From contig CAWKKN010000006.1 in the NCBI GenBank assembly GCA_963850315.1, forward strand, positions 4,843 through 68,842: 64,000 nucleotides of DNA. The letters run 5' to 3'. The translations under genes and the position numbers were made by a program. The notes under the pieces were generated by a model that searched no databases, was not told the DNA's origin, and saw nothing but the letters and a program-made list of their open reading frames with translations. Shown here in pieces: positions 14,871 through 52,472 of the stretch; within the stretch, counting starts at the first letter, position 1; the number at the start of each line of letters is the position of its first letter. This DNA comes from an uncultured Actinomycetes bacterium. Lineage in GTDB: Bacteria; Actinomycetota; UBA4738; HRBIN12.

Positions 14871-16355
14871 ATGGGCGTGGATGATGCAGGAGCCAACACC
14901 CTTCGTTCCGATCCGGCCGTCTCCGACCAGACCCCGAGGCGTGAGCAAGGACGCGACTCCCCTGCCTCGACCGTTGAACACCCCAGCCGGAAGGAGCGGC
15001 AAGCACGGGGGAAGGCTGCCCGGAAGGTCGTGCCGCGCGAGAGCCATGCCGAGTTCGCTCCCGAAGTGCGCCTCGACCCGATCGATCTCCTGCAGGAGCA
15101 CGCGAGGGTCCCCGAACTCGGGCCGATCCGTTACGGGCGCATGGAGGTCTCGGCGTTCACGTTCTACCGCGGCGCTGCGTTGATCATGGCGGCAGACCTC
15201 TCGACCACGCCCACCTCCGGGCTGATGGTCCAGCTCTGCGGTGATGCCCACCTGTCGAACTTCGGGACGTTCGGCTCGCCGGAGCGTCACCTCGTCTTCG
15301 ACATCAACGACTTCGATGAGACTTCGATCGGGCCCTGGGAGTGGGACGTGAAGCGTCTCGCGGCCAGCTTGGAGATCGCGGGACGCGACGACGGCTTCTC
15401 CGACAAGCAGCGCCGGAGAGCGGTGTTGGCGGGCGTGAAGGAGTATCGGAAGGCGATGTGTTCGTTCGCCGACATGACCAACCTCGACGTTTGGTATGCC
15501 CACATCGACGTCGACCAGGTGCTGCCGGAAATCAAGGCGCAGATCCATCCCAAGCGCGCGAAGGAACTCGACGAAGCGCTGTCGAAGTCGCGGACGCGCG
15601 ACAGCATGCAGGCGTTCACCAAGCTCACCGAGGAGGTCGACGGTGAGCCCCGGATCGTGAGCCGGCCGCCCCTCATCGTCCCCCTCAACGAGCTGCTCAC
15701 AGGGCCTGAGCGAGACGCGGTTGAACAGGGTCTCATTGCGATCGTGGGTTCCTACCCCAAGACCCTCGAGACCGATCGCCGACACCTGTTGGGCGGGTTC
15801 CGGTTCGTCGAGGTCGCTCGCAAGGTGGTCGGTGTGGGTAGCGTCGGCGCGCAGGCATGGATCGTGCTGATGCTCGGCATCGACGATCACGATCCGTTGA
15901 TCCTGCAGGCCAAGGAGGCCGATGAGTCTGTCGTGGAGCGGTTCGCGGGAAAGAGCGGGTACGCGAACCACGGCCAGCGAGTGGTGGCGGGCCAACGCCT
16001 CATGCAGGCCACCAGCGACATCTTCCTGGGCTGGGATCGGATCATCGACATCGACGGAACGCACCATGACTACTACCTCCGTCAGTTCCGCGATTGGAAG
16101 GGCTCGGTAGAGATCGACTCGTTGCGACCGGCGGCGCTTGCGATCTATGCACGCCTGTGCGGCGGGACCCTGGCCCGGGCGCACGCTCGTTCGGGCGACA
16201 GGGTCGCTCTCGCTTCCTACCTAGGGAAGTCCGAGGCCTTCGACCACGCGATCGCTGAGTTCTCCATGACCTACGCCGACCAGAACCAACGCGACTACGA
16301 GGCGCTGCAGGCAGCGATCAAGCAGGGCACGATCAAGGCCGAGACCGGGATCTAG
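14871..16355 (+). CDS. DUF2252 domain protein
   Basis: IRYGRMEVSAFTFYRGAA, CGDAHLSNFG, FDINDFDE, KVVGVGSVG, LARAHARSGD; SD GGGAGG before ATG 14871. Confidence 0.9.
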   Translation: MGVDDAGANTLRSDPAVSDQTPRREQGRDSPASTVEHPSRKERQARGKAARKVVPRESHAEFAPEVRLDPIDLLQEHARVPELGPIRYGRMEVSAFTFYRGAALIMAADLSTTPTSGLMVQLCGDAHLSNFGTFGSPERHLVFDINDFDETSIGPWEWDVKRLAASLEIAGRDDGFSDKQRRRAVLAGVKEYRKAMCSFADMTNLDVWYAHIDVDQVLPEIKAQIHPKRAKELDEALSKSRTRDSMQAFTKLTEEVDGEPRIVSRPPLIVPLNELLTGPERDAVEQGLIAIVGSYPKTLETDRRHLLGGFRFVEVARKVVGVGSVGAQAWIVLMLGIDDHDPLILQAKEADESVVERFAGKSGYANHGQRVVAGQRLMQATSDIFLGWDRIIDIDGTHHDYYLRQFRDWKGSVEIDSLRPAALAIYARLCGGTLARAHARSGDRVALASYLGKSEAFDHAIAEFSMTYADQNQRDYEALQAAIKQGTIKAETGI

Positions 16356-16443: not shown

Positions 16444-17505
16444 TCAAGCGACCACCGTTCGGTACTCATTGATGAGTCCGTCGACTACGGGCATCCGTCG
16501 GATGTCCTCGATCGGAACGACCACCTTCGCGATGCTGGCCGGCTCCGGCGCCTCGAGATCAAGCCCTCGATGCGGCCGGTGGGAGTTGTAATGCGTCTCG
16601 TAGTCCGCAAGCAGCTTATGCAGATGACTTCGCCCTACGACGAGCGTGCGGTCGAGCAGCTCGACGCGGATGGTGCGGACGAACCGTTCCGCAAACGCGT
16701 TCGCCTTCGGGGCCCGGACAGGAGCCAGGATTACGTTGGCACCTTCAGACCTCGATCACCTCGTCGAACGAGGCGGTGAACTTCGAGTCGCGATCGCTGA
16801 GCAAGAAGCGCGCTCCTTCCAGGTCGCCCGCCATCGCGAGGTTCCGCGCCTGCTGGGTCACCCATCGGCCGTCTGGGTTCCGTGTTGTCCCGACGATCCG
16901 TACGCGGCGAGTCCCGACCTCGATGAAGAACAGCACGCAGAGCGTCCGCAGGAACACGGTTTCGACCGTGAAGACGTCACACGCAACGATGCCGCGGGCC
17001 TGGGCTCGAAGGAACTCGGCCCAGGTCGGCCCGCCTCGCCTTGGGGCAGGAAGGATGCCAGTCTCGCCGGAGGATCGTTCGGATCGTGGTCGCGCCGACC
17101 CGGTATCCGAGTCCTTGCAGCTCACCTTTTATCCTCATCACTCCCCAACTCGGGTTGTCCCTCGCCATGCGCACGATCAGGCGCACGAGTTCGGGATCAA
17201 GCGGCGGCCGACCTCCCTTGCGGTTGTGGAAGGTCCATTTCCGACGCACCAGCTTTCGGTGCCAGCGAAGGATTCGTCGACGGGGATACGACGAACACTG
17301 ACCATCGATCGCGTCCGATCACCCCCGCTAACGCAGCGATGACCATCCGGTCGCGACGACGTAGGCGCGGGCGTGGGTTCGTCCGTTTCAACACTGCCAG
17401 TTGGTGACGAAGGACGAGGATCTCGGCCTGGCGCTCACGCACGTCGTGATCGGGAGCGATCCGAAGCACAGCTCGAAGGATGAAATAGCAGACGGAGAAG
17501 AGCAC
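16444..17505 (-). pseudogene. integrase-core (rve) DDE transposase of a decayed IS, several frameshifts
   Basis: EILVLRHQLAVL; MARDNPSWGVMRIKGEL; IVACDVFTV; SDRDSKF; ANAFAERFVRT...HYNSHRPHRGL...GLINEY. Confidence 0.85.
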
Positions 17506-17575: not shown

Positions 17576-20500
17576 TTAGGCCTCGAGGATGACAGACGCG
17601 TAGAGGCCGAGCAGGCGTGCGCGCTCGCGTCGAGCCCGTTCGGATCGGAGATGTCATCGCTCTGCGGGATGACCGTCGTGTCGGTCGGCCCGGCCCAGAC
17701 GGGTGAGCAGTGCCCCTGCCCACCCTCGGCAAGCAGCTCGACCAGCGCGGCGAAGATAGACTCCGGTCGAGCCAGGCGTGTCCATAGGGCCGTCGTCGCA
17801 GCCGGCCCCGAGGGCACGTCCATCCCGAGCTTGCGCGCGACCAAGGCTTGCCGGAACGCAGCAAGCGACGATGGACACCCCCCAGCCGTCGAGTTGCCGG
17901 TCCAGGCTCGCGACCGACGACGCCGCCGTCGAACGTCATCCCGCGCCGCCGCAGGTGGCTCGTCCCGACCAGCGCGTAAACGTCGTCGATGAGCACCACC
18001 GTCGAGCGGATCGCGGACCACCGCCCTGGGAACCCCACCGGCGAGAACGCCACCACCCGTCCCGGCGAGTCCTGCGCTAGCTTCTTGACAGCCGCCGCGC
18101 GCTGCGCGAACGCCGCACGCACCCAGTTCGCCTTCGTCGGGCGTGAAGTCGGGCAGCCGCGGCACGCACATGATCACCTTCAGCCGAGGCACGTGGGATA
18201 GCCGCTGGCCGATCAGCGCCACGAGATCCAGCCCGCCGTCGTCGCCGAACGACGTGGCCGAGAACGCCGGCCCCTCGACATAGACGTAGTCCTCGGCCTG
18301 CGAGATGGCGCGCGCGAGCGAGAGCAGCGCATCGTGCTGCCCGGCGCATCGCGGTCTGACTTTCGCGCTCCAGCTCGCGCAGCAGCTGCGCCTCGTTCGC
18401 GACGCTCACCTGCGGCGGCGGCATCCCGATCTTCGCCGCAATCGCGTTCACCGCGTTCTGGACAGTATCGCCGGGCGTCGGTGCGGGCAGCAGCGACAAC
18501 TCGGGGCTGTCGACGAACGGCGCGATCGTCTCGAGCATGACGCCGGCGACCGTCCCGGTGGTGTCGGGGGCAGGCGGTGACCAGTTGTCGCCGTCGGTCA
18601 CCGCGAGCCAGCCCAGCGCCGCCGCTCCGACGGGCAGGATCGGCTCGGCGCGGTTGAGAGCATGCAGCGCGAGGTCGTAGCCGAGCTGCCCGCCGACCTG
18701 CACGCCGCTCGCGAACACGTCCGGCCCCGCCGGGTTGCCCGGATCGGCAAGCTCGGCACGGGCGCTGCGCGTCTCCCACGTCCACCGCCCGCCGGTGAGC
18801 ACGCCCTGCCAGACGTAGCGCGGGTCGCCGGTGCCGGCGGTGCCCAGGGCGAGGATCGTCTCGAACCGGCGCCTGCGTCGGCAGGTGCGGGCCGGTTCGC
18901 GGCGCGGGACGACTCGTTCGCGAGCCTGCGCACCGCGTCGAGGATGTCGGTCGGCGCCGGGCCTGGCGGAGGCGGCGGGGCCGGGATGCCGAAGACCGAC
19001 CGGGGCGACCGCGGTGACACCTAGAGCGCCCGTCGCCGCCTGCACCACAGGCGTGGTGAGGAACGCCGTGCCACCGAATTGCGCGAGCGTTCCCGTCCAC
19101 GACTCCGCGGCACTGCTCTGCGGAGCCAGCACCACCGAGCCTCGCATCCGACGGCTGCCGTCGCGACCGGTCGCGACGATGTCGACCGTCAGGGGCAGAC
19201 TCGACAGCGGGTCGTTCGGAGCGAGGTTGTACGGGTTGACGAGCAGCAGCTTCGTCGGCCCGCTGCCGACAATCGCGGCGCCACCGTCGCCGCGCACGAA
19301 CGACGGCTGCTCCGACGTGATCGCGGTGATCGTCTGGAAGCTGCGCGGGAAGGCGCGCAGGTGCGTGCCGGCCGACAAGCCGGAGTCGGCGGCGAACGTG
19401 ACGATCACGTCGCGGTTGGCGCCGGCGCCGTCGGTCGGGTTGCGCCAGGCCGCGGTCGCAAGCTTGGCGAGGTCGAAGCCGGTGGCCACTCCGGTGACCG
19501 GGGTCGGTGACGGCGGCGGGAACGCGGGCCAGTGTCCGGCCTGCCCGGGCGCGGGCGGCAGCGCCAGAGTCGGATCGATAGCCGGCGAGCAGAGCAGCGG
19601 CAGCACGTCCCGGTTCGGCGTCGGGAAGTTCGCCGAGATCTGTCCCATCGCGCCGACCACGTCCATGCCATCGGGGAGGTAGGCGAAACCGGGCACCCGC
19701 GGACGGACCACGGGCAACGTGTAGGACGGCGGCGGGGCCACCGGGTCACCAGGCACACCGCGGGTGGCGGTCGCGGCGCGATTCCCCACGAGGTGCCAGT
19801 TCAGGTCCACGACCACCACGCGGAAGAACTGCCGGGACAGGGTCACCCCGGCGGGCAGCGAGGGAGGCGCGAGCGGCTGCTGGTCGAGGAAGCCACCCGG
19901 CGCGAAGCCCCAGTACAGGGAGCCGGCCGACCCACCAGCGGCCGGGCCGAGGCTCTGCCCGGCGGCGAGCGAGACCGTGCCGGTGCTCGGGTCGACCGTG
20001 TCTGGGTTCGCGCCGCCGCTCACGGCGAGATCCATGTCGGCGGTCGGGGTGCAGAGCACTCCGTGCGGCGACACGAGGTGGTAGCGCACCGCAGCCGCGG
20101 ACAGCGCGATGACCTTGCTCAACCCGCCGGCGCCACCGACCTGGCCCACACCGAGACCCGGTAGCCAGCTGATCAGCTCGGCGAACATCGCTGCGACCGC
20201 GACCGGGTCGACGGGCAGCCCGCGCGCGTCGTGGAACGTGATGACGAGCTGGTTGACTCCGGGCAGCGGCGCGAAGACGTCACCGGCCCGCACGGACTGC
20301 ACCGGTGGCTTGGCACCGGGCGGTGAGTTCGGCGGGGCCTGCCACGTCAGACCGTGGACGAGCATCGCCACGGGCACCGGGCGGATAAGCGGAGCACCGA
20401 GCCGGCTGGTGACGAGCGACACGAGCCGGCGCGCCGCTTCGGGGAGCATCTCGATCGCGTACACGGCGTCGGTGATGGGCTGCCCGGTCACATCGCGCCA

Positions 20501-20728
20501 CCGCTCGCCCGAGTCGAGGTAGCGGGCGGCACCGTGAAACGGTGCCTTGAGCCAGCCGCCGAGTTCCAGCGAGAGGTGGTCCTCGTCGAGCGCGCCCGGC
20601 TGGGTGTCCGACCACTCCGCGCTGAGGACGGGCATGACGAGCCCGAACGCGTCGAGCTTATCCGCCGTCATCTGGTTCGCCGCGGACGCCGGCGTCAGCA
20701 CGCTGACCGGAGGGATGAGCTCTACCAC
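17576..20728 (-). CDS. large hypothetical protein with a C-terminal degenerate phospholipase D-like domain (third gene of giant operon; frameshifted)
   Basis: 883-aa ORF continues across frames into LARAISQAEDYVYVEGPAF and RSTVVLIDDVYALVGTSH; TAA at 17576. Confidence 0.7.
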
Positions 20729-20729
20729 T

Positions 20730-23700
20730 TCACATCACCGCCCGGGTGATCGTCGCCTGGGCGCCATCCGGCGCGATGACATCGACGCGCACCCACCCCG
20801 TGCCCCGCAGCACTGCCCCGATCGTCCGCCCACCGCTCGTTGCCGGGACCTGGCGCAGCGGGATCGGTGCCGGGTCGGCGAAGACGTCGTCGCCGGGTTG
20901 GAAGACGCGGATCGTCCCGATATCGTCGGTGACCTCCAGTAGGTGGGGCGGAAGCGGTAACGGCGGGAACTCCGACAGCCCGATGTGCACACGGTATGGA
21001 CCCATGCCCGCCACGTCGTCGGGCACCGACGTCTCGAAGCTGAGCACCCGTCCGCGGCCGACGATGTTCACGATGTTCACGTTGGTGATGTCCGGCGGAC
21101 TCACCGGGTCGGTCGGCGGCACCGTCACCACCTGCTCGGTGAGCCGTCCGAGCGGGTCGGTGACACGGAGTCGCACCGCGAGCTGATCGGTGAACGCGGC
21201 CCGTGCGATCTGCAAGTGCAGGTCGGTGCTCGTTCCCGTCGACGGGTCGCGCCATAACCCGGATGCGTTCGCTGCCGGGGCGATCTGTGGGCAGTGGTCG
21301 AAGTCGGTGTCCGGTGCGGAGCCTGGCACAGGCGGGGCCGGGTAGCGGAACAGCAGCTCGCTCGTCCCGTCGTCCTGAGTGACGATGACCTCGGCCTCGA
21401 CCCGGTGCGGGCCGAGCGGCGTCGGCGCCACCGGTGCGCCCGTGACGGTGTCGATACGTACGTGCGGCGTGCCGCCCATCGGCGTCGTGACGACGAGCGG
21501 CGCGAGATCGGGATTGCCGGCCGGCGGCACGACCACCTGGCGGATCGTGCTCGGCTGCGACCGCCCGCCGTACTGCCCGCGCGTCGGGTCGTCGGCGGCC
21601 CAGGCGACGGCGCGGTAGTAGACCGGCTGCCACGATCCGGGCACGGGGTCGATGCCGTCGACGCGGCCGAGTGGCTGGTTCTCGCCAGGGTTTCCGGACA
21701 CCGTCGGCGTCACGGTGACCGTCGAGCTGCTGCCCGAGACGGAGGCGACCGGCGGACCCATCGTGTCGAGATCGATCGCCGCCTCGGCGACGCGGGTGCG
21801 GTAGAGGTCGATCCGGCCGACCGTCACCCCGGGCCGAGCGCTGAGCCGGAACGCCGCCTCGGTACGCCGCCGGGGTGACCGCCGTGTCGGGGCGCCCGAC
21901 TACCTCGATGGTCGGCGGGTTCGGCGCAACGACGTGCGGCGCGGCATACGCGATCGGCCGCTTGCGGCGATCAGGGTCGCTCAGGTCGGGCCAGGCCGAC
22001 TCGATCTGGCCGGCGCTGAGCCCGAGGACCGCGAAGAGGTGGATGTCCTTCGTGCCGCGGGGCAACGTGACGGCGAGGCTCGTTCCGGTGACCGGTGTGG
22101 CGTTCACGCGGGTGAAGACACGCCGCGTCGGGTTGTCGCGGAACGCGTCGCGGAGGGTTGTCAGCCGGTCGCTGAGCGTGTCGGCGAACGACGGGTCGCC
22201 CCGCCCGCACGCGTCGAGGAGGTCCGTCTCGCTGCAGGCGTAGGCGAAGTAGCCGACGGCACCGGGCGCGGCCGGCCACTGCAGGAGCGCGTGGTACTCG
22301 CCGGCGGCGTCCGCCATGCTCGTCAGCAGCACGTCCTCGTGCTCGATCGTCAGCACCGGCGGACGCGGGTCCGCCGCCGAGGCGATGAGCGGGCTGGTGC
22401 TCCACGAGCCGACCCGACCCGGTGCGCGTGCCTCGGTGCCGCGAGCCCACAGCGCCATTCCGATCGCGCCGGCGGCCGAGTAGTCCAGTCCGAAGCCGGT
22501 GATCGTCAGTCGATACCGCCGTGGTCCCGCGATCGCGCCCTGCAGCCCGGACGAGAGCGTATGCGCCTGCTCGTCGAAGTACTGGATCGACGCGCTCGAG
22601 GCCACCGCCCGCGACGACGGTGGCGACGCCTGTGCTGTCGAATTCGATCGCGACGGGCACGCCGCTGCCTCCGGCCAGGGACGGGGCCAGGCCGGCGGGG
22701 ACGGAGAGGTCGCCGGGCGGGTCGTCCAGGCGGGCCTCGGTGTACATGCGCCCGACGAGGTCGATACGGCACGGGCTCCGGCTCGCCCAGTTCCACGCGA
22801 TGTCGACGCTGAGCGCGCCCGGGCAGACCGCCGCGGCGGCGGTGACGTCCCAGCTCGCGGCGATCAGCGACGCGACCCCCACCGGCGGCTCGCCGAGGGC
22901 GGTGCTCGCCGAGGCCCAGTCGCTCCACTGCCCGAACAGGTCCTGGTGCGCGACGCCGTAGCTCAGCTGGTTCGGGTTCGGCGCCGAAGCCAGGTGATAC
23001 CTGTCGTCGAGCGCGCTCAGCCGACCCGAGCCCGCGAGCGCCTCGCTGGTGGACGCGCCGATCGGCTGCACCGCGGTGTCGTGGGGTCGTGGGTCCATGA
23101 TCGCCTCGACGCCGCCGGCAGGCGCCTGTTGAGTGCGAACCAGGGCGTAGCTGCCGACGCGGAGCGGCAGATCGTCGGCGAGGCGGTCCCAGCCGGGGCG
23201 GATGACGCCGATCCAGTCGAGATCGATGTCGTCCGGCGCCGCGAGGCCGTCGACGGTCGCCGCGACACCGGTCGGCGTGGGCGGCATGAGCGCCATACCC
23301 GGTGCGAACACGATCGCGGCGTACTCGAGCGGGCCCGGCTCGTTGTTCGTCCCGTTCTCGTAGTGCGCGGTGACCATGTAGTCGTAGCGGGTCGACGCCT
23401 CGTACAGCACGGAACCCTGGTCACCGACCGGCTCCTCGAAGGCCGTGCCGAAGCCGGCGATCAGCGACGCGAGCGGGTCGGTCGCGGCGCCGTACACGAG
23501 CGTTCTGAGCGGGCTGATCGTCGCCGTCGGGTCGTTGAGGTTCGGCGAGGCGAGGCTCTGCGTCGTGGTGAACGCGGCCTGCTGCTCGGCGGGCACGTTC
23601 ACCATCTGCCGCAGCAGGGGCAGCAAGCTCTCGTCGACCACCTTCAACATTGCCTTCGGGTCGGCGAGCTCGCCACGCCGGGGCGAGTGAACCCGTGTCG

Positions 23701-24383
23701 AGCAGCGGGCGCCACCCGTAGAAGGGCGCGCCGCGGCGGAACCGGTCGAGCGCTGCGTCGGGCGGGTCCTGCGGCGCCCCGACGAGCCCCTGCTGCTCGT
23801 CGAGGTTCAGCACGTTGTTGAAGGTCTGGTCGACGGGCAGCCCGACGATCTCGATCTTCTGCCAGTCGAGGTCCTGGGCAGCGTCGCCGTCGAGGCCGCT
23901 GAGACCTGTGAGCACGACGCCGGGCGAGATCAGCAGGCACTGGATCGCCGGCGCCGAGAAGGCGTACTGCGTCTGTGCGGTGCTTAGCGTCTGCGGTGAG
24001 ATCATCGGCGAGGCGTAGGGCGCGCCGGCGAAGGCGATCACGTAGCCGGCAGGGCCCTGCAACCCGGCGCGGACGAACACGCGAGGCCGGTCGAACACGA
24101 TCAGGGTGGCGCCCATGAAGTCCGCGGTGCCGTAGGGGATCGGCGCCTCGTTCTGAGCGGGCGCGGACCCTCGGCGCCACACGGTGAACGGCTCGGTCGG
24201 GTACCCGAGCGCCGGATCGGTCACCCACCGCAGCTGGACGAGCCGGCTGCCCTTCAGGCCGCGATCGGCGGCGACCTTCTGCGGTGGGGGGACGTGTTCG
24301 ATGTCGCGCCGGTAGGCGAGCGTCCAGTCGACGACCGATGCGAGCAGCAGGAACCTCGTCGGATCGACGACGCGCGGTGCCAT
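20730..24383 (-). CDS. large (~1200 aa) beta-rich hypothetical protein with Fn3/Ig-like modules (second gene; frameshifted)
   Basis: ORF pieces 23421..24641, 21971..23650, 20722..22605 and 20730..21827 join into one gene; motifs YGVAHQDLFGQWSDW, YYRAVAW, LRVTDPLGR; TGATG overlap with the upstream gene. Confidence 0.7.
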
Positions 24384-27300
24384 CAGCCCTCCTCCCATGG
24401 CGCGCTCGCGAACGTCATGTCGAAGACCGTGACGCTGCGCTCGGCGGGGTCGAGGAACGGCAGATCGGCGAACGCAGCTGCGACGAGGTCGAGGCCGAGC
24501 TGCTTGCCCCGTTGGGTCGGGGCGAGCACGACGAGCGCCCGCTGCCCACCCGGCGCGACGACGATGCCGTTGGGCGCGACCGTCGCGGCCGTCGCGGCGC
24601 TGGGCCGCAGCAGCAGCCACTCCCGCGCGGCGAGGATCCACCGCTCCGCAGGAGCCGGGCCGGTCGAGTCGGTGACCTTCGACGGGTAGCTGCGGGTCCG
24701 CAAGAGCGGTTCGGTCGCGTCCACCAGGACGGCCGCCGGCTGCGGGTCGGACGAGCCGCTCTGCTCCCAGAAGACGACGACGCGGGCCCGGGTCGGTGTC
24801 TCGAGCGGCTCGATGCCATGCGCGCGCAGTTGGTCGTCGAGCTCCGAGCCGGCCGGCCGTCGTCCGGCGAAGAAGCCCGCGATCGCACCGAACGCGCCCG
24901 CCGGTGCCGAGCGCGCCGTCGGCGTCGGGGAGATGATCGATGCGGCAAACTGCTCGAACGTCCCGTACAGGCCGGTGCTGAAGTGACGGCGGAAGATGCT
25001 CGGGCCGGCAGTACCGTCGGGTGCACCGGCGTCGACGAGCTCGACGTCGAGGAGATAGTCGGTGCAGCTGTTCAGCGGGATCTTGATGTCGACCTGGCTG
25101 TGCCGGGAGCGGGCACCGTCGACCGGCACGCAGGTGCCCTCATCACCGAGCTGGGCGACCGCCTGGGCAATCGCGTCCTCGAACGGCGACAGCAGGGTCG
25201 CCGGCACCGTCACGACCGTCGACGGGTCTACGGGGTAGGGGTGCGGCACCGCCGGGGTTGACTGCGGTTGCTGCGCCGACGCCGCCTGGAAGCGGACCTG
25301 CATCTTCTTGCCGTAGCGGGTCAGCAACCGGTCGAGGTCCTGCGTGTTGAAGACGAGCTTCACGTCCTCCTGACCGAAATACCCCTTCTCCGCCTCGTCC
25401 GGGACGGTCATCAGCAGCCAGGAGTCCAGGCGCACCGGAACCGGCGGTGTGGAGGCGAACTGCAGCTTGGCTGCGTCCTGCGGGTCGGCGACGATGCGGT
25501 CGGTGCGGAACCAGAAATGTTGCGTGAACGTCGGCGCGTCGGAGTCGTCGAGCCGCTTGCCGGTCGAATCCACCGTGATGCGGTAGAGCGAGTCGGCGTA
25601 CAGGAACGCGTTGGTGTCGCTCGCCGACCCGAGCAGCTGGGTCAGCACCTGCTGGTCGCTGTTGAGCTGCGTGGTGTCCCAGTCGACGCGCAGCTTCTCC
25701 GACCAGCGCGTCTCGGCCGCGGCGGCGACGTAGTACGGCGGGGCGATCTGCGGGCGTTGCTCGGCGAACTCGGCGATGACGATCGGCGTGCCCAGCCCGT
25801 GGGTGCCCAGCTCGACACGGTCGGCGAACTCGTCCGGATCGAGTGCTACGTACACGGGGACGGTCTTGCTGCTCTGCTGCCAGCGCAGCAGGTCGTCGAT
25901 GTCATCGGCCCAGGGGCCGGCCGGGTCGGTCCAGCGCGGGGGCAGCGGGTTCGACCAGATGAGGTTCGCGGTGGTGACGACGGCCCGCTGGTGCTCCGCG
26001 CCGTCGGAACCGAGGGCGCGCACGACGATGTGGCCGCCCTCGAGCATCGCGCGTGGGATGAACAGCAGCACGCCGAAGGTGGCGAAGGCTCCTGTGGAGA
26101 TCACGACGACGTCGTCGAGCTCGCCGTGCGTGACACCACGTTGGTCGAGCTCGACCGCGACCTCGTCGGACCTCGACTGGTCGCCGATCGCGATCGGGCG
26201 GCCGTCGTCGAGCATCGGCGCCTGCAGCAGGTGGACGGCGCAACGGGTACGGATCGGCACGAGGGAGGTGAGGTCCGGGGCCAGCACCGCGGTCGAGGCG
26301 GCGAGCTGGGCCGGCGACAGTGCGGCCTTCAGCTCGGCCACGCCGATGCCGGCTCCGGCGTGCAGCGCGCGCAGCGCGTCACCGACGGACATCGCGGGCG
26401 CCTCGCGCTCCCCCCGCGGGAGTGCGGTGCTGACCTTGCGGTGCAGATCCGCGGAGATGCGCAGCGGCTGCTGCCCCGGGCTGCGGACGAGCGCAGCGTG
26501 CACCGGGTCGTCGGGCGCGACCGCCGCACCTGTTGTTGGCACCTCGGTGACCGGCCCGTGCCCGCCGACGACGAGCCGGGGCGGCAGCGGGCCGGGCGAA
26601 GCGGCGGCTGCGTGTTCGGCATCGAGCAGGTGCAACCACGGGTTGACGTCTAGTCCGCGTTCGCACGGAACGGTGCCACCGAGGACGAAGGCGGGGAAGA
26701 TCCCGCGCTGAGCGTCCAAGACCGGGTCGCCGCTGCGCCAGCGCTCGCCGACGTGCAGCGCGCTTGGCGGGGCCGAGCTGCGCACCGACCCGAGCGGGTC
26801 CGGCCACGCTATGCCCTCCAGGTCCCACCCCGTCGCCGAGAAGCCGAGCGGCTCGAACCGGAAGGTCCACAGCTGCTCGGCGGCCGGAGCGGCCGGAGCG
26901 CAGATCGTTCCGTAGCGCTCGGTCAACGAGTCGGTGAGACGGTCGGTCTTCTCGATCGCCTTGGTGGCAGGCGACGGTGCCCAGGTGAGAAGGGCCAGCT
27001 GCGCGACCGGGCTGGGGTCGGTGGGCCCCGCGAGTGTCCACCACACGGCCGGCCCGCTCGGTTGGTCGATGGCGTCCCCGGCAGGCTGCCCCGTGGCCGG
27101 GTCGATCCGCTCGAGGGTGACCACCGAGACGACGTACTGGTACCGGTCGCCACCGTGCTCGCAGTAGGCGGCCTTCGGATCGGGCGACGCCGGGTTGGGC
27201 GCCCCAGGCGACGAGCCGATCCCGGTGTTCAGTCCACCGATGGTCAGGTTGTCCGTCACGGCAGGGGGCACGGCCATCGCGATGATCGGGATGGCGTCCA

Positions 27301-30300
27301 CGGGTACCACCGGCAGCGCGTCTCCGGCGCCGGGCACGGCATCCGACACGAGGGCGTCGCCGAGGCTGACGTCGATGCCGCGGTCGACGCCGGTGCCCTG
27401 CGCCAGGGCCGGCGAGCGGCTCTGCAGCGACACCTTGGTCACCAGCGGTGGGATCGGTGTGGAGGTGTCGCCACCGGTGCTCAGCGAGATCTCGACGCAG
27501 CCGGAGACCTCGAAGAAGAGGAAGCTGACGTGCCCGCACGCCTTGCCGTCGACCGACATCCCGAAGCTGCTGTCGTCGTGCTCGGCCACCACGACGTTCA
27601 GCTCGGCGTCCGCTCCGATGGAGACGATGAACAGCCGCAGCTCACCCGAGACGTAGATGACGCCGGCCAGCGTGAACGGCTGGAAGCCGAGCTCGGCGTC
27701 CATGCCGCCGCCGATGCGCAGGTAGAGCCCGACGTCGGTGTCGCCCCACGTGAACGACGCGGCCACCCCCAGGCCGAGCGAGAACCCGGTCAGCGCCGGC
27801 AGCGTGAATCCGTGCACCGGGTAGGCGGGCAGGCCGTCGCCCTTCGCCATCAGGTAGCCGGTGCCCTTGACGATGCCCGAGCACGTCGACCTCGACCGGC
27901 TGGCCGAGGTCCTTGCGCGCGCCGAGGTAGACGTGCCATTTGGACGCGTCGGAGCCGAACGGGAACATCGCCTCGACCGGGATCTTGATCGTGATGAGAT
28001 CGGGGATCTCCCAGGAGATCAGCACGCCGATGAGGAAGTGATCCGGCGTGATCTCGATGACGGCGAGGATGCCGCCCGACCCGCCGATCTCGTCCATGTC
28101 CGGCGGCAGCGAGATGATCCGCGCATTCATCATGATCACGATGCGCGGGCCGGGCAGCTGGATCAGCAGCGTCCCGTCCAGGTTGAGGATGAAGCCGCCC
28201 TCCATCGTCCCGATCAGGATGCCGGCACCGAAGGCCCAGTGGTCGAGGTACGGGGACCCAGAGCTTCTCGCCTTGCTTGTTGGCGAGCTTGTTGGGTTCG
28301 CCGTCGGCGTGCTCGAGCCAGGTGAGCGCGGACGAGGGCGAGCCAGGGCTGTCCCACTGCGTGCTGCGGTCGTAGTGCATGCCGAAGATGCCGCGGAAGC
28401 CGAAGATCCCGAGTCCGGACGTGCCGAGCGGGATGCCCACGGGAAGCACGATGTCGAGTCCGACGTAGACGCCTGTCGCGGTGCCGCCGCTCGGCAGTGT
28501 GATGGTGGCGATCTCGACCGCCGCGGCGACGCGCAAGTCGATCGGCCGCAGCGTCAGGTCGAGCTGGCCGCCGATCGTCGCGACGGGGTGGCCCTGCGGG
28601 TCGGTGCTGTGCGCCATCTGGACGAAGCCGGAACCCACCAGCGCGCCAGCGATGTCGACACTCACGCCGAGCGCGGTGAGCTCGGGCGGCCGCGTCGGGT
28701 CGTCGAGGTAGACGCGCACCCCGGCGCGGTCGACACTGACCACACCGAGGTCGACGCTCATCCCGATGTCGATCTCGAGGGTGAGCGGGTTCGTCCGCGA
28801 CAGGCGTGCCGCGAGGATGCGCAGGATCTTGCCGAGCGGATCTGCGACGACGAGCGACCCGCTGCCCTGAACGTCGATCGTGTAACCGCGTGAGGAGTCG
28901 AAGATCGGGTGGAGCTGGAAGGCGGCCGCGCCCATCGCGTCGCGGTTGGCCGTGTGCACGCCGATCGCCTTGTAGCGGACGGTGAGGGGCTTGTCGGGAT
29001 TGATGGAGAGGACGTCGACGATCGGTTCGGTGGTCGCCCAGGCGACGGCGATGTCGACGAGGATGTCGGTCTCAACCTCGTCGGTGCCGCGTCGGAGTCC
29101 GACGTGCACCTCGCCCCCGTACCAGACGACGCGCTCGACCTCGAGGAATGGCAGCGCCCCGATGACGGCAGGAATCGCCATCGCCGCGGCCGAGAGTCCG
29201 ACGTCGACGATCGCGGCGCCCGGGCTCTCGCTCGACGCCTGCTGTGCGGCCGCGTCGAGTGGCAGATCGGCGAGCAGCGGCCAGAACGTGAGGTAGCTGC
29301 CCATCAGGTTGCGCACGACGTCGCGCGGCGCTCGCTGCTCGCCCGGGAGCCAGCCCCACACCATGAGGCCGGACGTGTCGGCGGGATCAGCACCGATCGA
29401 GCCGACGATCTGCTCGCGGCCTGTGCTCGGATCGGTCTGCACCAGGAGGCGGAAGTTGGTGATGCCGTCGGTGGGGTTGTCGGGCCCGACCGGGACGCCC
29501 TGCTGCAGGCTGCGTCCCTTCGGCGAGTTGTCGGTGTTCACCGCGGTCGGCGCGAGCGACTCCTCGACGAACGCCTGCAGGTAGAGCTGCAGGTCGAACT
29601 CGGCGGCGATGAGATCACCCTTGACGTACCGGACTATCAGCTTCGCCGAACGGAACGTCGCGGGCGGGTCGGGCTCGGTCGGGGTGGGGTCGACCGGGAC
29701 GATGTTCTGCGGCGGTGGCGGAGCGGCGGGTCGGCTGATCGTCACGCTCGAGGAGTGCTCCGGCGTGCTGACCGCTGGCAGACTCACGATCGCGCGCCAG
29801 TAGTCGCGGTCGTTCGGCACCTCGTGCGACGGGTCGTTCCAGTCGGCGTCGCTCACCCACTGGTCGATCTCGGCCTTTGTGGGCGCCGTCTTGTCGGGCG
29901 TGATCGTGGACTTCAGGTGCGGCTCCGGGTACGCCGCCGCGATGAGGTCGCGCGCGGTCTGGGCTCGGCGGCCGGCGAGCAAGTAGTTGTGCTGCCGGTG
30001 CCAGTCGTCGTCGATGCCCTCGAAGCTGGCCCGTCCCTCGATCGTGATGGTGATGTCCTGGGCGGTGTCGTGAGCGGTCCTCGCGACGGCGTCGAAATGG
30101 TCCTTGTACTGAGTCAGCGGGTCGACGTCGGGCGGCTCGAAAACGTTGACCGTCTTGCTGATGGCCTTGGACGAGGAGTAGGAGCGCGGGTAGGAGTCCT
30201 CCGGCTTCGACGGCGGACGGTCGAAGAAGAAGTAGACGGTGTCGGCGCGGGCGGCCGCCGCGGTGCCCGGCTTGCGCGCGGTGACGGTGTGCTGCTCGCC

Positions 30301-31809
30301 GGCAGCCAGGGGAACCTGCACCGACGCCGACGGCCCCGTCTCGGCGCCATTGTCGACCTTCCACATCAACATCGGGTCGGGCGGCACGCTGGTGAGCACC
30401 ACGTCGGCGTCGGTCTGTGTCTGCAGCGAGATCGTGGGCGTACCGGTCGGCGGGGTCATGGTCGCCGGTCGGGTCGGCGGCTGCGTAGGCGCGGGCGACG
30501 GCAGCAGCGCCGGCGCCACGACTAGTTGCGCTGTGATCGTCAACGTCACCGTTTTCGGGACCGGACCGGAGTCGGTGACGCTGATCGCGATCTCGGCCGT
30601 GTTGTCGGGCGCGTTCGACAGGTCGACCACGAAGATCGTGCCCTGCTCTGGCGCGCCGCCCGCGATGGTGACCTTCCGCGTGTAAGGCATTCGTCCGCCG
30701 GAGACGTCGACGATCATGCGGGTGTGCGCGGGCACCCGGGCGGTGGCGGTCGTCGCGCCGGTCGACTCAATGCCGTACGTCTTGTTGTTCGCGTCGACGA
30801 ACCGGGCGCTGACCTGGATCGTGGGATCGCCCTGCTCGATGATCGCGATCTCGAAGTCGCCCCAGACCCCCGCGCTGTCGTGCCCGATTCCGAAGAGGAA
30901 CTCGTGCGCGCCGGCCTCGAACGCCATGTTGCGCACCCCGTTGGGCGAGAAGAACACCCGGGCCTCGGGCAGGTAGAGACCGGTCCAGTCGTCACCCACC
31001 CCCGCCTTGTCCTTCAGCGCCGGCGGGGTGTTGTCAGCCGACAGGTCCAGCGTGGCCGAGCGGAACCCGATGCCGACCGTGTTCGAGCCGGATCCGCCGA
31101 CGTAGGCGTACGACGGCGACATCGAGACCAGTTCGGCGACACCGAGGTCACCCGGGTCGTCGAGCCCGGTTGCACCGAGGGAGACGAGCTCGAAGCGCAG
31201 CTGGCTCGGATCGGCGTCGCCGTGGGTGAGCCGGAAACGCAGCTTCGGCAGGCTGAGCGTGACCTCGTTCACCGAGTCGTCCGGCACGAGGGTGCCGGTG
31301 TCGGCGAGTCTTGCGGGGTGGAGGAAGGGGGGGCGCAGGCTCGGCGCGTCCAGGATCAGGTCGAGGACGAACCCGGTGGAGGGGTAGTCGGTCGTCGGGC
31401 CGTTCGCCGGGCCCGCGAGCGCGTCGAGCACGGCCTTGGTTTGCTGGAAGGCCGTGCTGGTGGCAATCGAGCCCTCGCCGGCGAAGACGATGTCGCTGCG
31501 GATGCGAGGGACCAGCAGCTCGAACTCGATCGCGGTTTCGGCGAGGTCGATGATGGGCTGGCGGTTCGCCGGGTCATACACGGGGGCCGCCTCGTCCACG
31601 CCGCCCGTGACCGAGAACGCGCCGTTGGGGAACAGCTGCGCCCAGCCGTTGAACTCGCCGCGCCCGCGAATGGTGACGCCTAGATCGTCGCCTGCCTGCT
31701 CGTAGGTCGTGACGCGTAGGGCGGAGGCGAGGGCGTGGAAGCTACCGAGGGTCTCGCCGCGAAGGACATAGGGGAGCACTAGGTCCAGCAGGGCGAGGTT
31801 CGCCATCAT
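24383..31809 (-). CDS. giant (~2470 aa) hypothetical protein with an internal OmpA-like domain and long amphipathic beta-strand regions (first gene; frameshifts near 28260 and 27875)
   Basis: ORFs 27850..31809, 27642..28205 and 24383..27850 are contiguous; IEGRASFEG...HNYLLAGRRAQTA; GIPLGTSGLGIFGFRGIFGMHY. Confidence 0.75.
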
Positions 31810-32504
31810 TCATCGCACCCCGACCTGTAGGTCGTCCTAGGTACTGACCCTGGTTGCGAGGGCCTCCGCATTGCCGAGGCTCTCTGGGGGGTTCCAGCTC
31901 GTAGTGCTGCATATGAGTTTGGGGTAGACGATCCGCGAATTCGAATGGGCGTCCGCCGACAACCCCTCGGGCACGATGTAGAAACAGACCGCGAGCGACG
32001 AGCGCCACTTCGGCTGAATACCTGGTCGCTGAAGTTCGTATCGATCATGTCGCGTGCGAACGCCATACGGGTCCAGCTGACGTCCTGTGGCGGCATGAGA
32101 GACATAACGGTTGACATTGCTTTCCCTCTCTCGAACGGAAAGGTCGAGCGTCAATTGCGTACCTGCGTCTCTCACACATGGCACTCACCCCAGATCGCCC
32201 AGGCGGGCCGGGCACCTTTCCCCGGGGCCGCCTCCGATACCACTGGCAACGGCGGGGATATGCGGATCACCGTTACGCCATCTGCCCTGGGGCGCAATCA
32301 GGATTTTGGGCGTCACCTGTCTGGCCTACACCCAGTCGATATGCCTCGATGCAGCGCGACCCTCTCGGTGAACGTCGAGGGCGACCAACCGCCAACCCTT
32401 GTGGAGTCCGTGCGCGACATTGGGAGGGTGGCGCGCAGCTACGGGCAGGACCCAGACGAGCTGTTCGCCTACCTCGCCGACTTCGCGGCGGGCGCGCTCG
32501 GGTA

Positions 32505-32814
32505 GAGAGCGCAAGTTCGCGGCGATGTTGTTGGGGTCATCGAGCAGCCGGGTGAAGGTCAGCGGCGAGATGTTGTAGAACTGCTCGCCCGCCACCGAGC
32601 GCAGGACCGGCTCGACATTCTCGACCTTGCCCTTGAGCGTCTTGGCCCGCTTGAGGACCGCGTCCTTGGTGGGCTCCAGGACGCAGTCGAGCCGGCGGAT
32701 GACGGCCAGAGGCAGGATGACTTTGCCGTAGTCAGACTGCTTGTAGGTGCCCCGAAGCAACTCGGCGATGGACTTGATGAACGCCGCGTGGTTCCTGATA
32801 TCCCCGTTGCTCAC
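32505..32814 (-). pseudogene. hsdM: type I restriction-modification M subunit, N-terminal fragment only
   Basis: NHAAFIKSIAELLRGTYKQSDYGKVILPLAVIRRLDCVLEPTK...LLDDPNNIAANL; similarity stops at ~32505 with no methyltransferase domain, hsdS or hsdR. Confidence 0.85.
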
Positions 32815-33227: not shown

Positions 33228-33692
33228 ATGGAAAGCGTACGTCACCACCAGGGCGCCAGCATGACGCGCCCCGCAGAACTCGCACCCGGCGAACTCGTCT
33301 GGGCGAGCATCGTGAACGGCATCGAGAACCCGCTCGCGCGCGGGAAGGCGAGGCCGGTCGTCCTGGTCGAGCCCAGCGGCTGGGCGTGGAAGACGATCGG
33401 GCTCACGACCCGCCCGCGCCACTACGACGGGACCCCGAGGGTTGCGATCCCGAACCCGCACGCGGTCGGTCTCAAGTTCCCCGGATGGCTGTGGAGCGGC
33501 AAGCTGTGCTTCACGTCCGGCATCGACATCCAGGACCACATCGGGTGGGTCGACATGCCGTTGGCGTTCGAGGTCACCAAGCTCGCGGGTCTCGGGGGGC
33601 CGACCATCCACGAGCTGCTCGCCGCAGCCCGTGAGCACCACGATGCGCCGGTTCGCACCGACCTCTCCGTGATCGAAAGGGGGTCGGCATGA
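33228..33692 (+). CDS. PemK/MazF-like endoribonuclease-fold protein
   Basis: PGELVWA...GKARPVVLV...IGLTT resembles the MazF GDIxW...KxRPxLV...PxTS pattern. Confidence 0.55.
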   Translation: MESVRHHQGASMTRPAELAPGELVWASIVNGIENPLARGKARPVVLVEPSGWAWKTIGLTTRPRHYDGTPRVAIPNPHAVGLKFPGWLWSGKLCFTSGIDIQDHIGWVDMPLAFEVTKLAGLGGPTIHELLAAAREHHDAPVRTDLSVIERGSA

Positions 33693-34402
33693 GCGGCAGG
33701 AACGGATCCACCAACGTGGTGAAGCTCGCGCCGAGCAGCCTGACCTTCCTGTGGGATGAGTGCCAGAGGTGCTTCTGGCTCTCCGCGCGCGGCGTGTTGA
33801 AGCGTCCGGCGGGGATCTTCCCCAAGGTCTTCACCATGCTCGACAACCAGACGAAGGACTTCTTCTACAACAAGCGCTCGGAGGTGATGGCCGAAGGGCT
33901 GCGCCCAGGTCGCGTCGCCTTCGGCGACCGTTGGGTCCGTTCGAGGCCGCTGCCCGTCCCGGGACACGACACCAAGGTCACACTCCAGGGGAAGATCGAC
34001 ACGGCGCTCGCGTATGACGACGGCTCGTTCGGGATCGTCGACTTCAAGACGTCGGAGCCGAAGGCCAGCCACGTCGACTTCTACGGACGCCAGTTGGCCA
34101 GCTACGCCCTGGCAGCGGAGAACCCGGTCGAGGGTGCCCTCGATCTGGCCCCGGTGAGCCAGTTGGGTCTGCTGTGCGTGGAGCCGGTCGCCATGATCGG
34201 TGTCGGGGACGACGTCGCCTACAAGGGAATGACGCACTTCCTCGAGATCGAGCGTGACGACGACGCCTTCATGGCATTCCTCTCCCAGGTCCTCTACGTC
34301 CTGGAGAAGCCCGAACCACCGCCAGCAGGTGCGAAGTGCGGGTACTGCGCGTACCTCGCGAACGGATCGCTCGTGCTCCTGACGGGGAGTTTCGGCCCCT
34401 GA
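33689..34402 (+). CDS. PD-(D/E)XK nuclease (RecB/AddB/Cas4-like) with four cysteines
   Basis: APSSL...ECQRCFW, GKID...IVDFKT, QLASY, CGYC; ATGA overlap with the upstream gene. Confidence 0.88.
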   Translation: MSGRNGSTNVVKLAPSSLTFLWDECQRCFWLSARGVLKRPAGIFPKVFTMLDNQTKDFFYNKRSEVMAEGLRPGRVAFGDRWVRSRPLPVPGHDTKVTLQGKIDTALAYDDGSFGIVDFKTSEPKASHVDFYGRQLASYALAAENPVEGALDLAPVSQLGLLCVEPVAMIGVGDDVAYKGMTHFLEIERDDDAFMAFLSQVLYVLEKPEPPPAGAKCGYCAYLANGSLVLLTGSFGP

Positions 34403-50933: not shown

Positions 50934-51944
50934 CTACCGCGTCGCGACCTTCACGACGGCGGTCACCATGATCATCACGAGCGCGAGCGGGATCAGCAGC
51001 AACCACGAGAACCGCTGTAGCTGATCCTCACGCAGGCGCGGGTAGGTGGCCCGCAGCCAGATGACCACGAACGATAGCGCGATGATCTTGCCCATCATCC
51101 AGATCGGACCCGGGATCGGGATCCCCGCGACGCCCAGGTAGCCGCCCAGGTACAGCGTGGCCGCGACCCCCGACAGGGCCACGATCCCCCCGTACTCGGC
51201 CAGCAGGAAGAAGGCGAACTTCAGCCCCGTGTACTCGGTGTAGGCGCCGAAGATGATCTCCGAGTCGGCGATGGGCATGTCGAACGGCGGCCGCGTGAGC
51301 TCCGCCAGCGAGGCCATCATGAAGATCAGGAAGCCCACCAGCTGCCAGGCGCAGGATGTTCCACAGCCCCGCTGCGACTCCACGATACCCACCAGCGACA
51401 GCGTGCCCGCCTGCATCACGACGGCGGCGGCCGCCAGCACCAGCGGCAGCTCGTAGGCGATCAGCTGCGCGGCCGCGCGCAGCGCGCCGATCAGCGAGAA
51501 CTTGTTCGCGGAGGACCATCCCGCCATCAGCACGCCGATCACCGAGACCGAGGCCATCGCCATCACGAAGAAGATGCCGATGTCGAGGTTCAGCGCGAAC
51601 ACGTGGGGCTGAACGGCAGCACCACCAGGATCGCGATGTAGGGGATCATCGCGACTGCCGGCGCCAGGGAGAACACGTTGCGGTCGGCCGCCTCGGGGAC
51701 GATGTCCTCTTTCTGGATGAACTTCACGCCGTCGGCGACGAGCTGCGCCCACCCGTGGAACGAGCCGGCCTCCATCGGCCCCACGCGCGACTGCATGTGC
51801 GCCAGCACCTTGTGCTCGATGTAGCCCACCACGAGCGGCACGACCAGGAAGAACATCAGGACCACGACGGTCTTCAGGATCAGGACGATCCAGAAGTTGT
51901 GAGACCAGCCGTCGAAGATGGAGGTCCGTCGGGGTGGCGATCAC
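50934..51944 (-). CDS. nuoH: NADH-quinone oxidoreductase subunit H, second copy (frameshifted)
   Basis: [15 protein letters not shown]...[10 protein letters not shown]; [15 protein letters not shown]; AELTRPPFD; [12 protein letters not shown]. Confidence 0.88.
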
Positions 51945-52472
51945 TCGTCTTCGTCCTCCTCGCCCTCGACGGCGCCCGGCCACGGCTTGGCCTCGCGCGT
52001 CATGAGGGGGAAGTCCTTGCGGAGCGGATGGCCCTCGAAGGGCTCGGGGAGCAGCAGCTTCACCGGCTTGGGATGGCCTTCGAACGCGGATGCCGAACAT
52101 CTCGTGCGTCTCGCGCTCGTGCCAGTTCGCACGTGGGAACAGGTCCGAGACGGTGGGACAGCGCGGATCCTCGTGCGGCAGGCGCACCTTCAGCCGAACG
52201 TTGTGGTGGTGCGTGGTGGAGAACAGGTGCGTGACCACCTCGAAGCCGCCCTCCGGGGCCCCAGTCCACCCCGCCGTGAAGTCGCAGTAGTCGCAGGCGA
52301 ACTCGGGCTCGTCGCGGAGGAACCGCACGACGTCGCGGTAGCGGTCCGGCGGTGACGGTGGCGACGGCGTGCCCGTACTGATCGGCGAGTCTCGATGACG
52401 TCCTGACCGAACTGCGCGCGCAGCCGGGAGCCGACCTCCTCAGGAGGAGAGCGGGCTGGGTGAGCTTGCCAC
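51941..52472 (-). CDS. nuoC: NADH-quinone oxidoreductase subunit C, second copy (frameshifted)
   Basis: [23 protein letters not shown] / FEGHP...[10 protein letters not shown]. Confidence 0.88.

Follow-up and report, generated by a model that had tools for sequence, protein, structure and literature searches.

A conserved, horizontally mobile three-gene module of giant bacterial proteins with a phospholipase D-like member and a possible role at the cell envelope

Two-lobed phospholipases D (PLDs) of the "eukaryote type", such as human PLD1 and PLD2, plant PLD alpha and the bacterial enzyme PldA, are among the described proteins closest to a 14-kb locus analysed here from an uncultured member of the Actinomycetes. 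The locus is a cassette of three tightly coupled genes (genes 1, 2 and 3) on the minus strand of a 64,000-nucleotide stretch of DNA, hereafter the window (contig C6, accession CAWKKN010000006.1, positions 4843-68842), in an assembly of 2.86 Mb and 7 contigs with an estimated completeness of 73.5% (GCA_963850315.1). The predicted structure of a gene 3 product superposes on the whole catalytic domain of the two-lobed PLDs. It differs from them in that a catalytic His is replaced by Arg (25 of 28 homologues) and a catalytic Lys by Thr or Ser (21 of 28), in an extra N-terminal domain of ca. 215-310 amino acids with an invariant FHD motif, and in that the gene is always found behind two giant partner genes. 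A further structural neighbour is F13 of vaccinia virus, a membrane-associated protein of PLD fold with an incomplete HKD motif and a role that is structural or lipid-related and not one of classical hydrolysis (Z-score 20.2, root-mean-square deviation [rmsd] 3.8 Å over 308 residues). The likeness is one of fold alone. F13 is a small, lipid-anchored viral envelope protein, whereas the gene 3 product is three times larger and belongs to a bacterial three-gene module.

The other two genes recall different systems. The product of gene 1 recalls OmpA, Deinococcus SlpA and LptD in its combination of a module of the peptidoglycan-binding type with a very large, predicted amphipathic up-and-down sheet; unlike these proteins, it lacks a signal peptide, occurs also in single-membrane bacteria and carries the sheet in the middle of a protein of 2470 amino acids, and the comparison rests on a model with a predicted template modelling score (pTM) of 0.45 and on matches at rmsd 6.5-25 Å. 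Toxins of the toxin complex (Tc) type resemble the cassette in having three adjacent genes in descending order of size, no signal peptides, immunoglobulin (Ig)-like modules in the largest protein and a patchy, mobile distribution. However, the TcA/TcB-binding domain, RHS/YD repeats, SpvB and VRP1 were not detected in the cassette, and gene 3 encodes a PLD fold rather than an RHS cocoon with a variable toxic tip. Finally, the gene 1 core is homologous over its full length to three proteins that score above the cut-off of the uncharacterised Pfam family DUF6603 (PF20248), whereas seven of ten homologues and the window's own pieces fall below it. Scans of the ten translated pieces of the cassette in the window with Pfam, PADLOC and NCBIfam returned nothing, and a literature search, with supplementary files outside its range, found no paper naming DUF6603/PF20248 or describing a three-gene system of giant proteins with a PLD-like member. 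As far as these searches reach, the component folds are known, and neither their combination nor the whole system has been described, in agreement with the original prediction for this DNA, made from the sequence alone, which had treated the proteins as uncharacterised.

From 31806 down to 17576, the minus strand showed a coding signal unbroken over its whole length, and a codon-usage Viterbi path divided it into ten segments in changing frames, every one of them stop-free. Gene 1 (24383-31806, ca. 2470 codons) most likely starts at 31806, with 31809 as the alternative, judging from homologues that open with MANLALL. Its frame changes twice by one base, near 28250 and 27872, and its stop-free pieces (28252-31806, 27876-28247 and 24407-27874) align end to end with an uninterrupted relative of 2470 amino acids (P0001) at 82-84% identity (82% over the C-terminal 1163 residues). 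A reading of gene 1 as two genes meeting at 27850 was rejected, as the open frames at this point read through out of frame and P0001 continues across it as a single protein. Gene 2 (20730-24383, ca. 1216 codons) has three frame changes, near 23660, 22592 and 21861, and its four stop-free pieces are colinear with the uninterrupted gene 2 of two relative loci (L058 and L060) at 66-86% identity. Gene 3 (17576-20728, ca. 1050 codons) has at least eight frame changes and ends in a stop codon at 17578-17576. Both junctions could be read directly in the sequence. Genes 1 and 2 meet in TGATG, in which the stop codon at 24385-24383 overlaps the ATG at 24383-24381, with GGAGGAGGG just upstream; genes 2 and 3 meet in TGA-A-GTG, with the gene 2 stop at 20732-20730, a 1-nt gap at 20729 and a GTG start at 20728. 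Three same-strand genes of ca. 2470, 1200 and 1050 amino acids joined by this overlap and this gap are what the original prediction had described, and the sizes match those of intact relatives: the open frames of L060 are 2457, 1298 and 1044 amino acids long, the second being counted from the first possible start, upstream of the true one. The G+C content is 0.69-0.73 in the cassette and ca. 0.65 in its flanks. A promoter and terminator scan found no promoter-like site and terminator-like sites at chance level, and the 636-nt gap upstream of the cassette gave no match in Rfam.

The three genes very probably constitute one conserved functional unit, and the module itself appears to be genuine, conserved and free of decay. 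Used as the query of a full-library HMMER search, the C-terminal half of gene 1 yielded 407 cluster representatives at E ≤ 0.001, of which the long ones mostly measured 2200-2500 amino acids and were named "hypothetical protein" at their source. Loci matching the gene 1 end numbered 72 (51 from genome collections, 20 from metagenome collections and one from a plasmid search), although two of them, L012 and L064, appear to be one contig that was counted twice. Gene 2 followed in each of the 54 loci that have 3.8 kb or more of downstream sequence, and gene 3 was present, colinear and on the same strand in 45 of 47 loci with at least 7.3 kb. This co-occurrence bore out the suggestion that the genes work as one unit. 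When the open reading frames of the 51 genome loci were clustered, genes 1, 2 and 3 were found in 50, 44 and 37 loci, respectively; no conserved neighbour beyond the trio emerged, the flanking clusters occurring in at most five of the 51. Many loci show short intergenic gaps or overlaps of 1-4 nt, and uninterrupted homologues are known from both isolates and metagenomes. The two exceptions without gene 3 (L015 and L023, both Chloroflexota) have a gene 1 without its N-terminal ca. 700 residues. In L015 (7631-19044), gene 2 ends in a PASTA domain and the third gene encodes a 583-amino acid protein with a canonical PLDc_2 domain containing one HxK(x)4D motif. In L023 (6462-18062), a PG_binding_1 gene follows, together with a gene for a 401-amino acid protein without a family assignment. 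The joint absence of the N-terminal parts of genes 1 and 3 in these variants hints that the two parts may touch each other. A distant relative on plasmid pAMI4 of Paracoccus aminophilus (L080, 426687-437697) consists of a gene for a 2554-amino acid "outer membrane protein", a 1-nt gap and a hypothetical gene of 1114 amino acids, followed by ca. 2 kb without a long open frame, and may be a two-gene form of the system.

The frame changes raise the question of whether the cassette is alive in this genome. At least 13 one-base changes occur within 14.2 kb (two in gene 1, three in gene 2 and at least eight in gene 3). They were tracked by alignment to uninterrupted relatives, P0001 for gene 1 and L058 and L060 for genes 2 and 3; gene 3 aligns in eight successive stretches, with its last 12 residues in yet another frame. 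Their number would be consistent with a decaying pseudogene in which the changes are real, as would the position of the cassette amid insertion sequence (IS) remnants and a broken hsdM, and the uninterrupted state of rpoB, rpoC, one dnaE and ileS in the same assembly. Moreover, of six inspected shift sites, just two fall within a short homopolymer (three or four bases), and the reads found to match the locus, four identical 151-base contigs of one soil run, cover no shift site. Against this, the 12 shifts of the locus that were trackable by homology all have the same direction, which is also that of 1026 (74%) of the ca. 1381 putative shifts called by a Viterbi model in 2.49 Mb of coding DNA genome-wide. 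These calls are strongly clustered and amount to ca. 0.55 per kb, and the locus, with seven calls in 14 kb, lies at the genome average. At least four shifts break the essential gene secA into five pieces (contig C2, 349316-351698), and a second dnaE-like gene is in six pieces (contig C5, 100277-103254). The locus itself has no nonsense codons and no deletions, keeps 66-90% identity to uninterrupted relatives over full lengths, and shows ratios of nonsynonymous to synonymous substitution rates (dN/dS) of 0.15-0.38 against L060 and L058 in all pieces. The completeness of ca. 73% in seven contigs is matched by similarly low figures in other few-contig genomes of the genus. Because of the one-direction bias, the average density, the broken secA, the lack of stops and deletions, the low dN/dS and the low completeness of such genomes, the frame changes are most likely assembly errors rather than the mark of decay that they could have been taken for, and the locus in the living cell is almost certainly uninterrupted. 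We therefore regard a dead remnant as highly improbable. In practice, broken reading frames in this assembly should not be read as evidence of gene decay. Frame changes are patchy across the assembly, reaching up to 48 per 20 kb, and its gene calls and pseudogene counts are not trustworthy without polishing; a further patch, probably of the same kind, was seen on the minus strand at 51609-53746 of the window, where ca. ten frame transitions fall within 2 kb amid otherwise regular minus-strand genes.

An alignment of 36 full-length homologues of gene 1, numbered after a Leptothrix homologue (L008), resolved an N-terminal domain (residues 1 to ca. 340), a less conserved part (ca. 340-545), a block at ca. 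545-700, a Pro-rich linker, a well-conserved core (ca. 730-1700), a low-occupancy linker and a conserved C-terminal block of ca. 600 amino acids. In the less conserved part, an Ig-like module is weakly indicated at 30484-30738 (minus strand, as all cassette features) by a match of the family profile to phage decoration proteins (profile positions 357-431, E ca. 1e-3) and to an IgA Fc receptor (positions 369-441, E 0.07); a second such module probably follows the first. The insert that had been predicted to be OmpA-like was confirmed as a domain of the peptidoglycan-binding type at 29839-30174 (profile positions 545-656, best E 3.1e-5): among solved structures, 30 of the 31 matches to a profile that includes the window's N-terminal 690 amino acids (A5) were chains of OmpA, Pal, YfiB or MotB type. 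Its motif NxxLAxRRA (29941-29988; class motif NxxLSxxRA) reads NYLLAGRRA in the window, and the Pfam OmpA scores for gene 1 stayed below the cut-off (17.2-18.8 bits versus 27.2). The Pro-rich linker between this domain and the core is seen in the translation at 29662-29721, and the Pro-rich stretch is kept in the family consensus. As predicted, no signal peptide was seen: the N-terminus is conserved in sequence, and 34 of the 36 homologues have no hydrophobic segment before ca. residue 800, the other two having one near 361-397. The accompanying claim that a transmembrane anchor is lacking was not confirmed, since one strongly hydrophobic segment of ca. 19 residues occurs in the window (amino acids 866-887, 864-887 in the scan; 29146-29211), where its hydropathy of 2.01 is the highest over 19 residues in the N-terminal piece, and in all 36 full-length homologues near positions 850-915, with hydropathy up to 2.47. 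It is modelled as part of a helical pair, covered by helices 115-159 of the core model.

The core (26693-29655) is predicted to be a long, up-and-down antiparallel beta-meander. Its structure was modelled with AlphaFold2 (AF2) from residues 731-1700 of L008 and 39 sequences; this model and that of gene 3 below represent the Leptothrix homologue, which is ca. 49-62% identical to the window's proteins. With a mean predicted local distance difference test score (pLDDT) of 73.9 and a pTM of 0.45, the core model shows two or three helices followed by ca. 26 long antiparallel strands of 8-19 residues. In line with the alternating hydrophobic and polar tracts noticed originally, these strands are amphipathic, one face having a hydropathy of +2.06 with 11 of 171 residues charged and the other -0.58 with 46 of 168 charged. 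Foldseek placed LptD (E 5.4e-5), SlpA (3.5e-4) and ApoB100 (4e-4) among the matches, with TM-scores of at most 0.22, and a wide structural search added porins, VDAC and Tom40 at Z-scores of 10-12, the porin-type matches having rmsd values of 6.5-13 Å; a search of BFVD gave TM-scores of at most 0.13 and nothing usable. The matches are all membrane beta-barrels or lipid-binding sheets (LptD, SlpA, ApoB100, ushers, porins) of low quality, and on this model they show a generic shared arrangement rather than kinship, with closure into a barrel a possibility. A Gly-rich segment at 28381-28437, GIPLGxSGLGIFGFRGIFG, forms one hairpin of the modelled core. It had called to mind proteins of the DUF6603 type, and this hunch proved right in substance: three of ten full-length homologues passed the DUF6603 cut-off of 27 bits (P0018, 37; P0024, 48; P0046, 27.7) in a region inside the core that aligns to ca. 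amino acids 1000-1240 of the window's protein, although the match covers just positions 20-260 of the 502 model positions and the window's own pieces remained below the cut-off. Behind the variable linker, the C-terminal region of ca. 570-600 amino acids (24383-26100, boundary approximate), recognised from occupancy and conservation in the 36 homologues, ends in APWEE; its Atlas scores of at most 0.79 provide Ig-like leads at most.

Gene 3 had been predicted to end in a PLD-like domain, and the PLD fold turned out to be larger than that. The AF2 model of the L008 homologue (1057 amino acids, 31 sequences, ca. 49% identity to the window's protein) reached a pLDDT of 84.2 and a pTM of 0.88, and on this model a two-lobed PLD fold is certain. 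It comprises ca. residues 315-1036, corresponding to the window from ca. 19800 down to 17576, and follows the N-terminal alpha/beta domain with the FHD motif, in which all 28 homologues keep His158 and Asp159. Foldseek returned 98 matches in the Protein Data Bank at E ≤ 0.001. Human PLD1 and PLD2 superposed with Z-scores of 24.0-24.8 (rmsd 3.1-3.4 Å over 419-429 residues; 24.8 and 3.3 Å over 419 residues for PLD2), followed by plant PLD alpha (22.3), P. aeruginosa PldA, a secreted PLD effector (21.0; 3.6 Å over 438 residues), F13, and PLD3/4, Streptomyces PLD and phosphatidylserine synthase at ca. 17-19 (18.3 for the last). At the profile level, the C-terminal lobe matched the canonical PLDc_2 protein of L015 with a probability of 95.7% (E 1e-8), and this alignment places Arg915 and Ser917 at the positions of the canonical catalytic His and Lys. 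Across the 28 homologues, His is retained at the former position in one and Lys at the latter in none, with Asp kept in all 28; no Lys column reaches 80% anywhere, many Arg and Asp residues are invariant, and the string H.K....D appears in one homologue, located elsewhere. The N-terminal lobe has at most a His-x-Arg (His457-x-Arg459, with His in 22 homologues and Arg in all 28). It may be what is left of the first motif, and it was placed by spacing and not by superposition. Neither the window pieces nor any of 12 homologues exceeded the Pfam PLDc/PLDc_2 cut-off (best 15.2 bits versus 27). Judged from these residues, classical catalysis by gene 3 is unlikely, and another chemistry or pure binding would be possible.

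Gene 2 appears from its sequence to belong to no known family. The Fn3/Ig-like modules originally proposed for it were not recovered: Pfam, PADLOC and NCBIfam found nothing in the window's gene 2 pieces, a Pfam census yielded no family in more than one of 31 alignment rows, the gene 2 profile gave a single hit among solved structures (E 0.95), and its Atlas scores, at most 0.79, are leads at most. A profile comparison with the N-terminal part of gene 1 had a probability of 0.3%.

The cassette is rare and was absent from all of 40 relatives, 24 of them of the same genus. In the same phylum, 4 of 400 other genomes matched the gene 1 core at E ≤ 1e-10; one of the matches is long, and one comes from an unpublished genome (G155). 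By record titles, the carriers span ca. ten phyla, three of the titles being assigned to what we take to be their phyla, and at least seven phyla are represented in the tree. In this quick maximum-likelihood tree of 36 gene 1 cores, for which the tool warns of meeting long branches, phyla are mixed: Williamsia groups with Chitinophagaceae, Paenibacillus with Bryobacteraceae and Reyranella with Chloroflexota, and Actinomycetota and Pseudomonadota each require at least four changes. A complete cassette lies on the megaplasmid pRtrCIAT899c of Rhizobium tropici CIAT 899 (L078, 18939-45848; open frames of 2480, 1225 and 1087 amino acids), directly downstream of an ISL3 transposase gene. The mixing of phyla in the tree, the patchy and rare occurrence and the IS elements or transposases beside the cassette in both the window and R. 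tropici suggest that the trio is a self-contained, horizontally mobile and rare module. Carriers include Actinomycetota, Bacillota and Chloroflexota, which are single-membrane bacteria. Several cultured carriers would permit direct testing, namely R. tropici CIAT 899, Leptothrix discophora CCM 2812, Sphaerotilus mobilis DSM 10617, Brachymonas denitrificans DSM 15123 and Paenibacillus montanisoli RA17.

What the module does can be proposed tentatively. The reading that we favour, at a probability of roughly 35%, is an envelope- or membrane-acting machine of three parts. The envelope theme is suggested by the OmpA-like and Ig-like modules, Pro-rich linkers, hydrophobic segment and amphipathic sheet of gene 1 and by the PLD fold of gene 3, and also by the PASTA domain in gene 2 of L015 and the PG_binding_1 gene beside L023. 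Under this proposal, the three products would act together at the cell envelope. Gene 1 would anchor to peptidoglycan or its precursors and present its amphipathic sheet at a lipid bilayer or insert it there, as a pore or a lipid-binding surface; gene 3 could use its Arg-rich former active site to bind anionic ligands that carry phosphate, for example the head groups of phospholipids, without classical hydrolysis; and gene 2 might bridge or scaffold the products of genes 1 and 3. The rarity, mobility and self-sufficiency of the trio suggest a function in conflict or in a particular niche, and the machine might thus perturb the membrane of a competitor or of the infected cell itself rather than serve in housekeeping. 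A bolder version, which we find distinctly doubtful, holds that the giant sheet inserts into or wraps a bilayer without Sec and Bam, in bacteria with one membrane as well as in those with two, with the wall-binding domain for positioning and the PLD fold as a phospholipid-binding subunit.

Several observations weigh against this proposal. No signal peptide, N-terminal anchor or secretion genes were seen, which leaves the route of the wall-binding modules to the wall unexplained. As carriers have one or two membranes, the sheet cannot be an ordinary barrel in the outer membrane of the cell that makes it. Beside the trio, no conserved gene of an immunity type was found, an argument against a self-toxic pore or lipase. 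The core model, with its low pTM and fold matches at rmsd 6.5-25 Å, describes a generic up-and-down sheet, and a soluble multilayer core would be equally possible; both structural models, moreover, derive from the Leptothrix homologue and not from the window's own proteins. In gene 3, non-classical catalysis would still be conceivable, given His457-x-Arg459 and two invariant residues, His158 and His903. Gene 2 offers no clue, and a single complex of the three proteins presupposes a physical interaction that is presumed.

Three other roles share parts of this evidence. An anti-phage defence by abortive infection, occupying a former restriction-modification slot, would have the OmpA-like or PASTA modules sense wall damage or wall precursors and then trigger self-permeabilisation. 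Its appeal lies in the surroundings and the distribution: the window's cassette is near a truncated hsdM, a PD-(D/E)XK nuclease gene and IS elements, one relative locus (L041) adjoins a type I restriction subunit and two (L008 and L010) adjoin genes for LmuA-like metallo-beta-lactamases, the spread is rare, patchy and horizontal, and an effector aimed at the cell itself and kept inactive could do without an immunity gene. We nevertheless consider it unlikely. None of the ten window pieces matched any of the 5027 PADLOC models (PADLOC-DB 2.0, E ≤ 0.01), and Pfam found no nucleoside triphosphatase, nuclease, protease or other usual sensor or effector domain in the three proteins, either in the window pieces or in homologues. 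Furthermore, in the 113 flanking open reading frames of 35 other loci, whose flanks are short (ca. 2.6 kb), PADLOC identified credible defence genes at just three loci, two of which are close kin; across loci, the flanking genes are heterogeneous and chiefly metabolic or regulatory. The second role is that of a released three-component toxin with a logic like that of Tc toxins or large bacteriocins, in which gene 1 would bind the target envelope and form the translocation pore, genes 2 and 3 would supply the delivered or membrane-attacking part, and release would occur without a signal peptide, by lysis or otherwise. Here, neither an immunity gene nor a lysis cassette or secretion genes are conserved beside the trio, no Tc, RHS, SpvB, VRP1 or neuraminidase-like hit was obtained in the window pieces or in 10 gene 1, 12 gene 2 and 12 gene 3 homologues, and the catalytic residues of lipase toxins are missing in 25-28 of the 28 gene 3 homologues. 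A toxin of this kind is distinctly unlikely, even though the sizes of ca. 2470, 1216 and 1050 amino acids in large-medium-small order recall the A, B and C subunits and Tc toxins likewise lack signal peptides. It also draws on the Ig-like and wall-binding modules and Pro-rich linkers, which are typical of extracellular proteins, on the presence of PldA among the structural neighbours of gene 3 and on the canonical HKD PLD in third position at the sister locus L015.

The third role is that of a lipid-handling or envelope-building apparatus of the producer, in which gene 1 would form a phospholipid groove or belt, in the style of AsmA/TamB/Vps13 or of apolipoproteins, loaded by gene 3. Amphipathic strands with one strongly hydrophobic face would suit such a conduit, one end of which the wall-binding domain would fix, and ApoB100 (E 4e-4) and LptD (E 5e-5) are among the Foldseek matches of the core; gene 3 shares its fold with lipid-acting PLDs and with phosphatidylserine synthase. 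However, these matches to the core are generic (TM-scores ≤ 0.22), no AsmA, TamB or DUF490 hit was obtained with Pfam and NCBIfam in the window pieces or with Pfam in 10 gene 1 homologues, and no N-terminal membrane anchor was found. Moreover, envelope housekeeping is a poor fit for a module that is transferred across phyla and that is rare and dispensable, being absent from all 40 relatives and present in 4 of 400 genomes in the phylum, and we judge this role very unlikely.

If the three proteins do form one machine, it would represent an undescribed type of bacterial system of 14 kb and ca. 4700 residues, and one that spreads among at least seven of the phyla in the tree. Gene 3 would be another example of a PLD fold used without the classical catalytic residues, gene 1 would imply that a porin-like giant sheet is made by bacteria without an outer membrane, and the system would offer a first functional handle on Pfam DUF6603.

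The surroundings of the cassette agree with the predicted island between a broken hsdM and an IS. Directly upstream lies a truncated hsdM reduced to its N-terminal domain (32446-32814, minus strand; Pfam HsdM_N, E 3.1e-17), and directly downstream the remnant of an IS integrase core (16450-17032, minus strand), in which the fragment at 16450-16743 matches Pfam rve_3 (E 1.1e-13) and the adjoining coding segment at 16748-17032 has no family hit. Upstream of the broken hsdM follow genes for a PD-(D/E)XK nuclease (33677-34393) and a DDE transposase (35587-37113), and then an IS transposase gene that looks complete and encodes rve and HTH domains (37552-38676), so that the cassette sits in an IS-rich island. 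As had been noted, no secretion or phage-tail genes adjoin the cassette, either in the window or in the surveyed flanks of other loci. Further downstream in the window, a gene for a 906-amino acid LuxR-type regulator with an AAA_16 ATPase domain (9296-12013) and a DUF2252 gene (15024-16352) were observed, with no link to the cassette seen. In two Massilia loci (L019, 469-5223; L021, 464-5221), the immediate upstream neighbour of the cassette is a gene of the same orientation, and its 1585-amino acid product contains an F5/8 type C (discoidin) domain.

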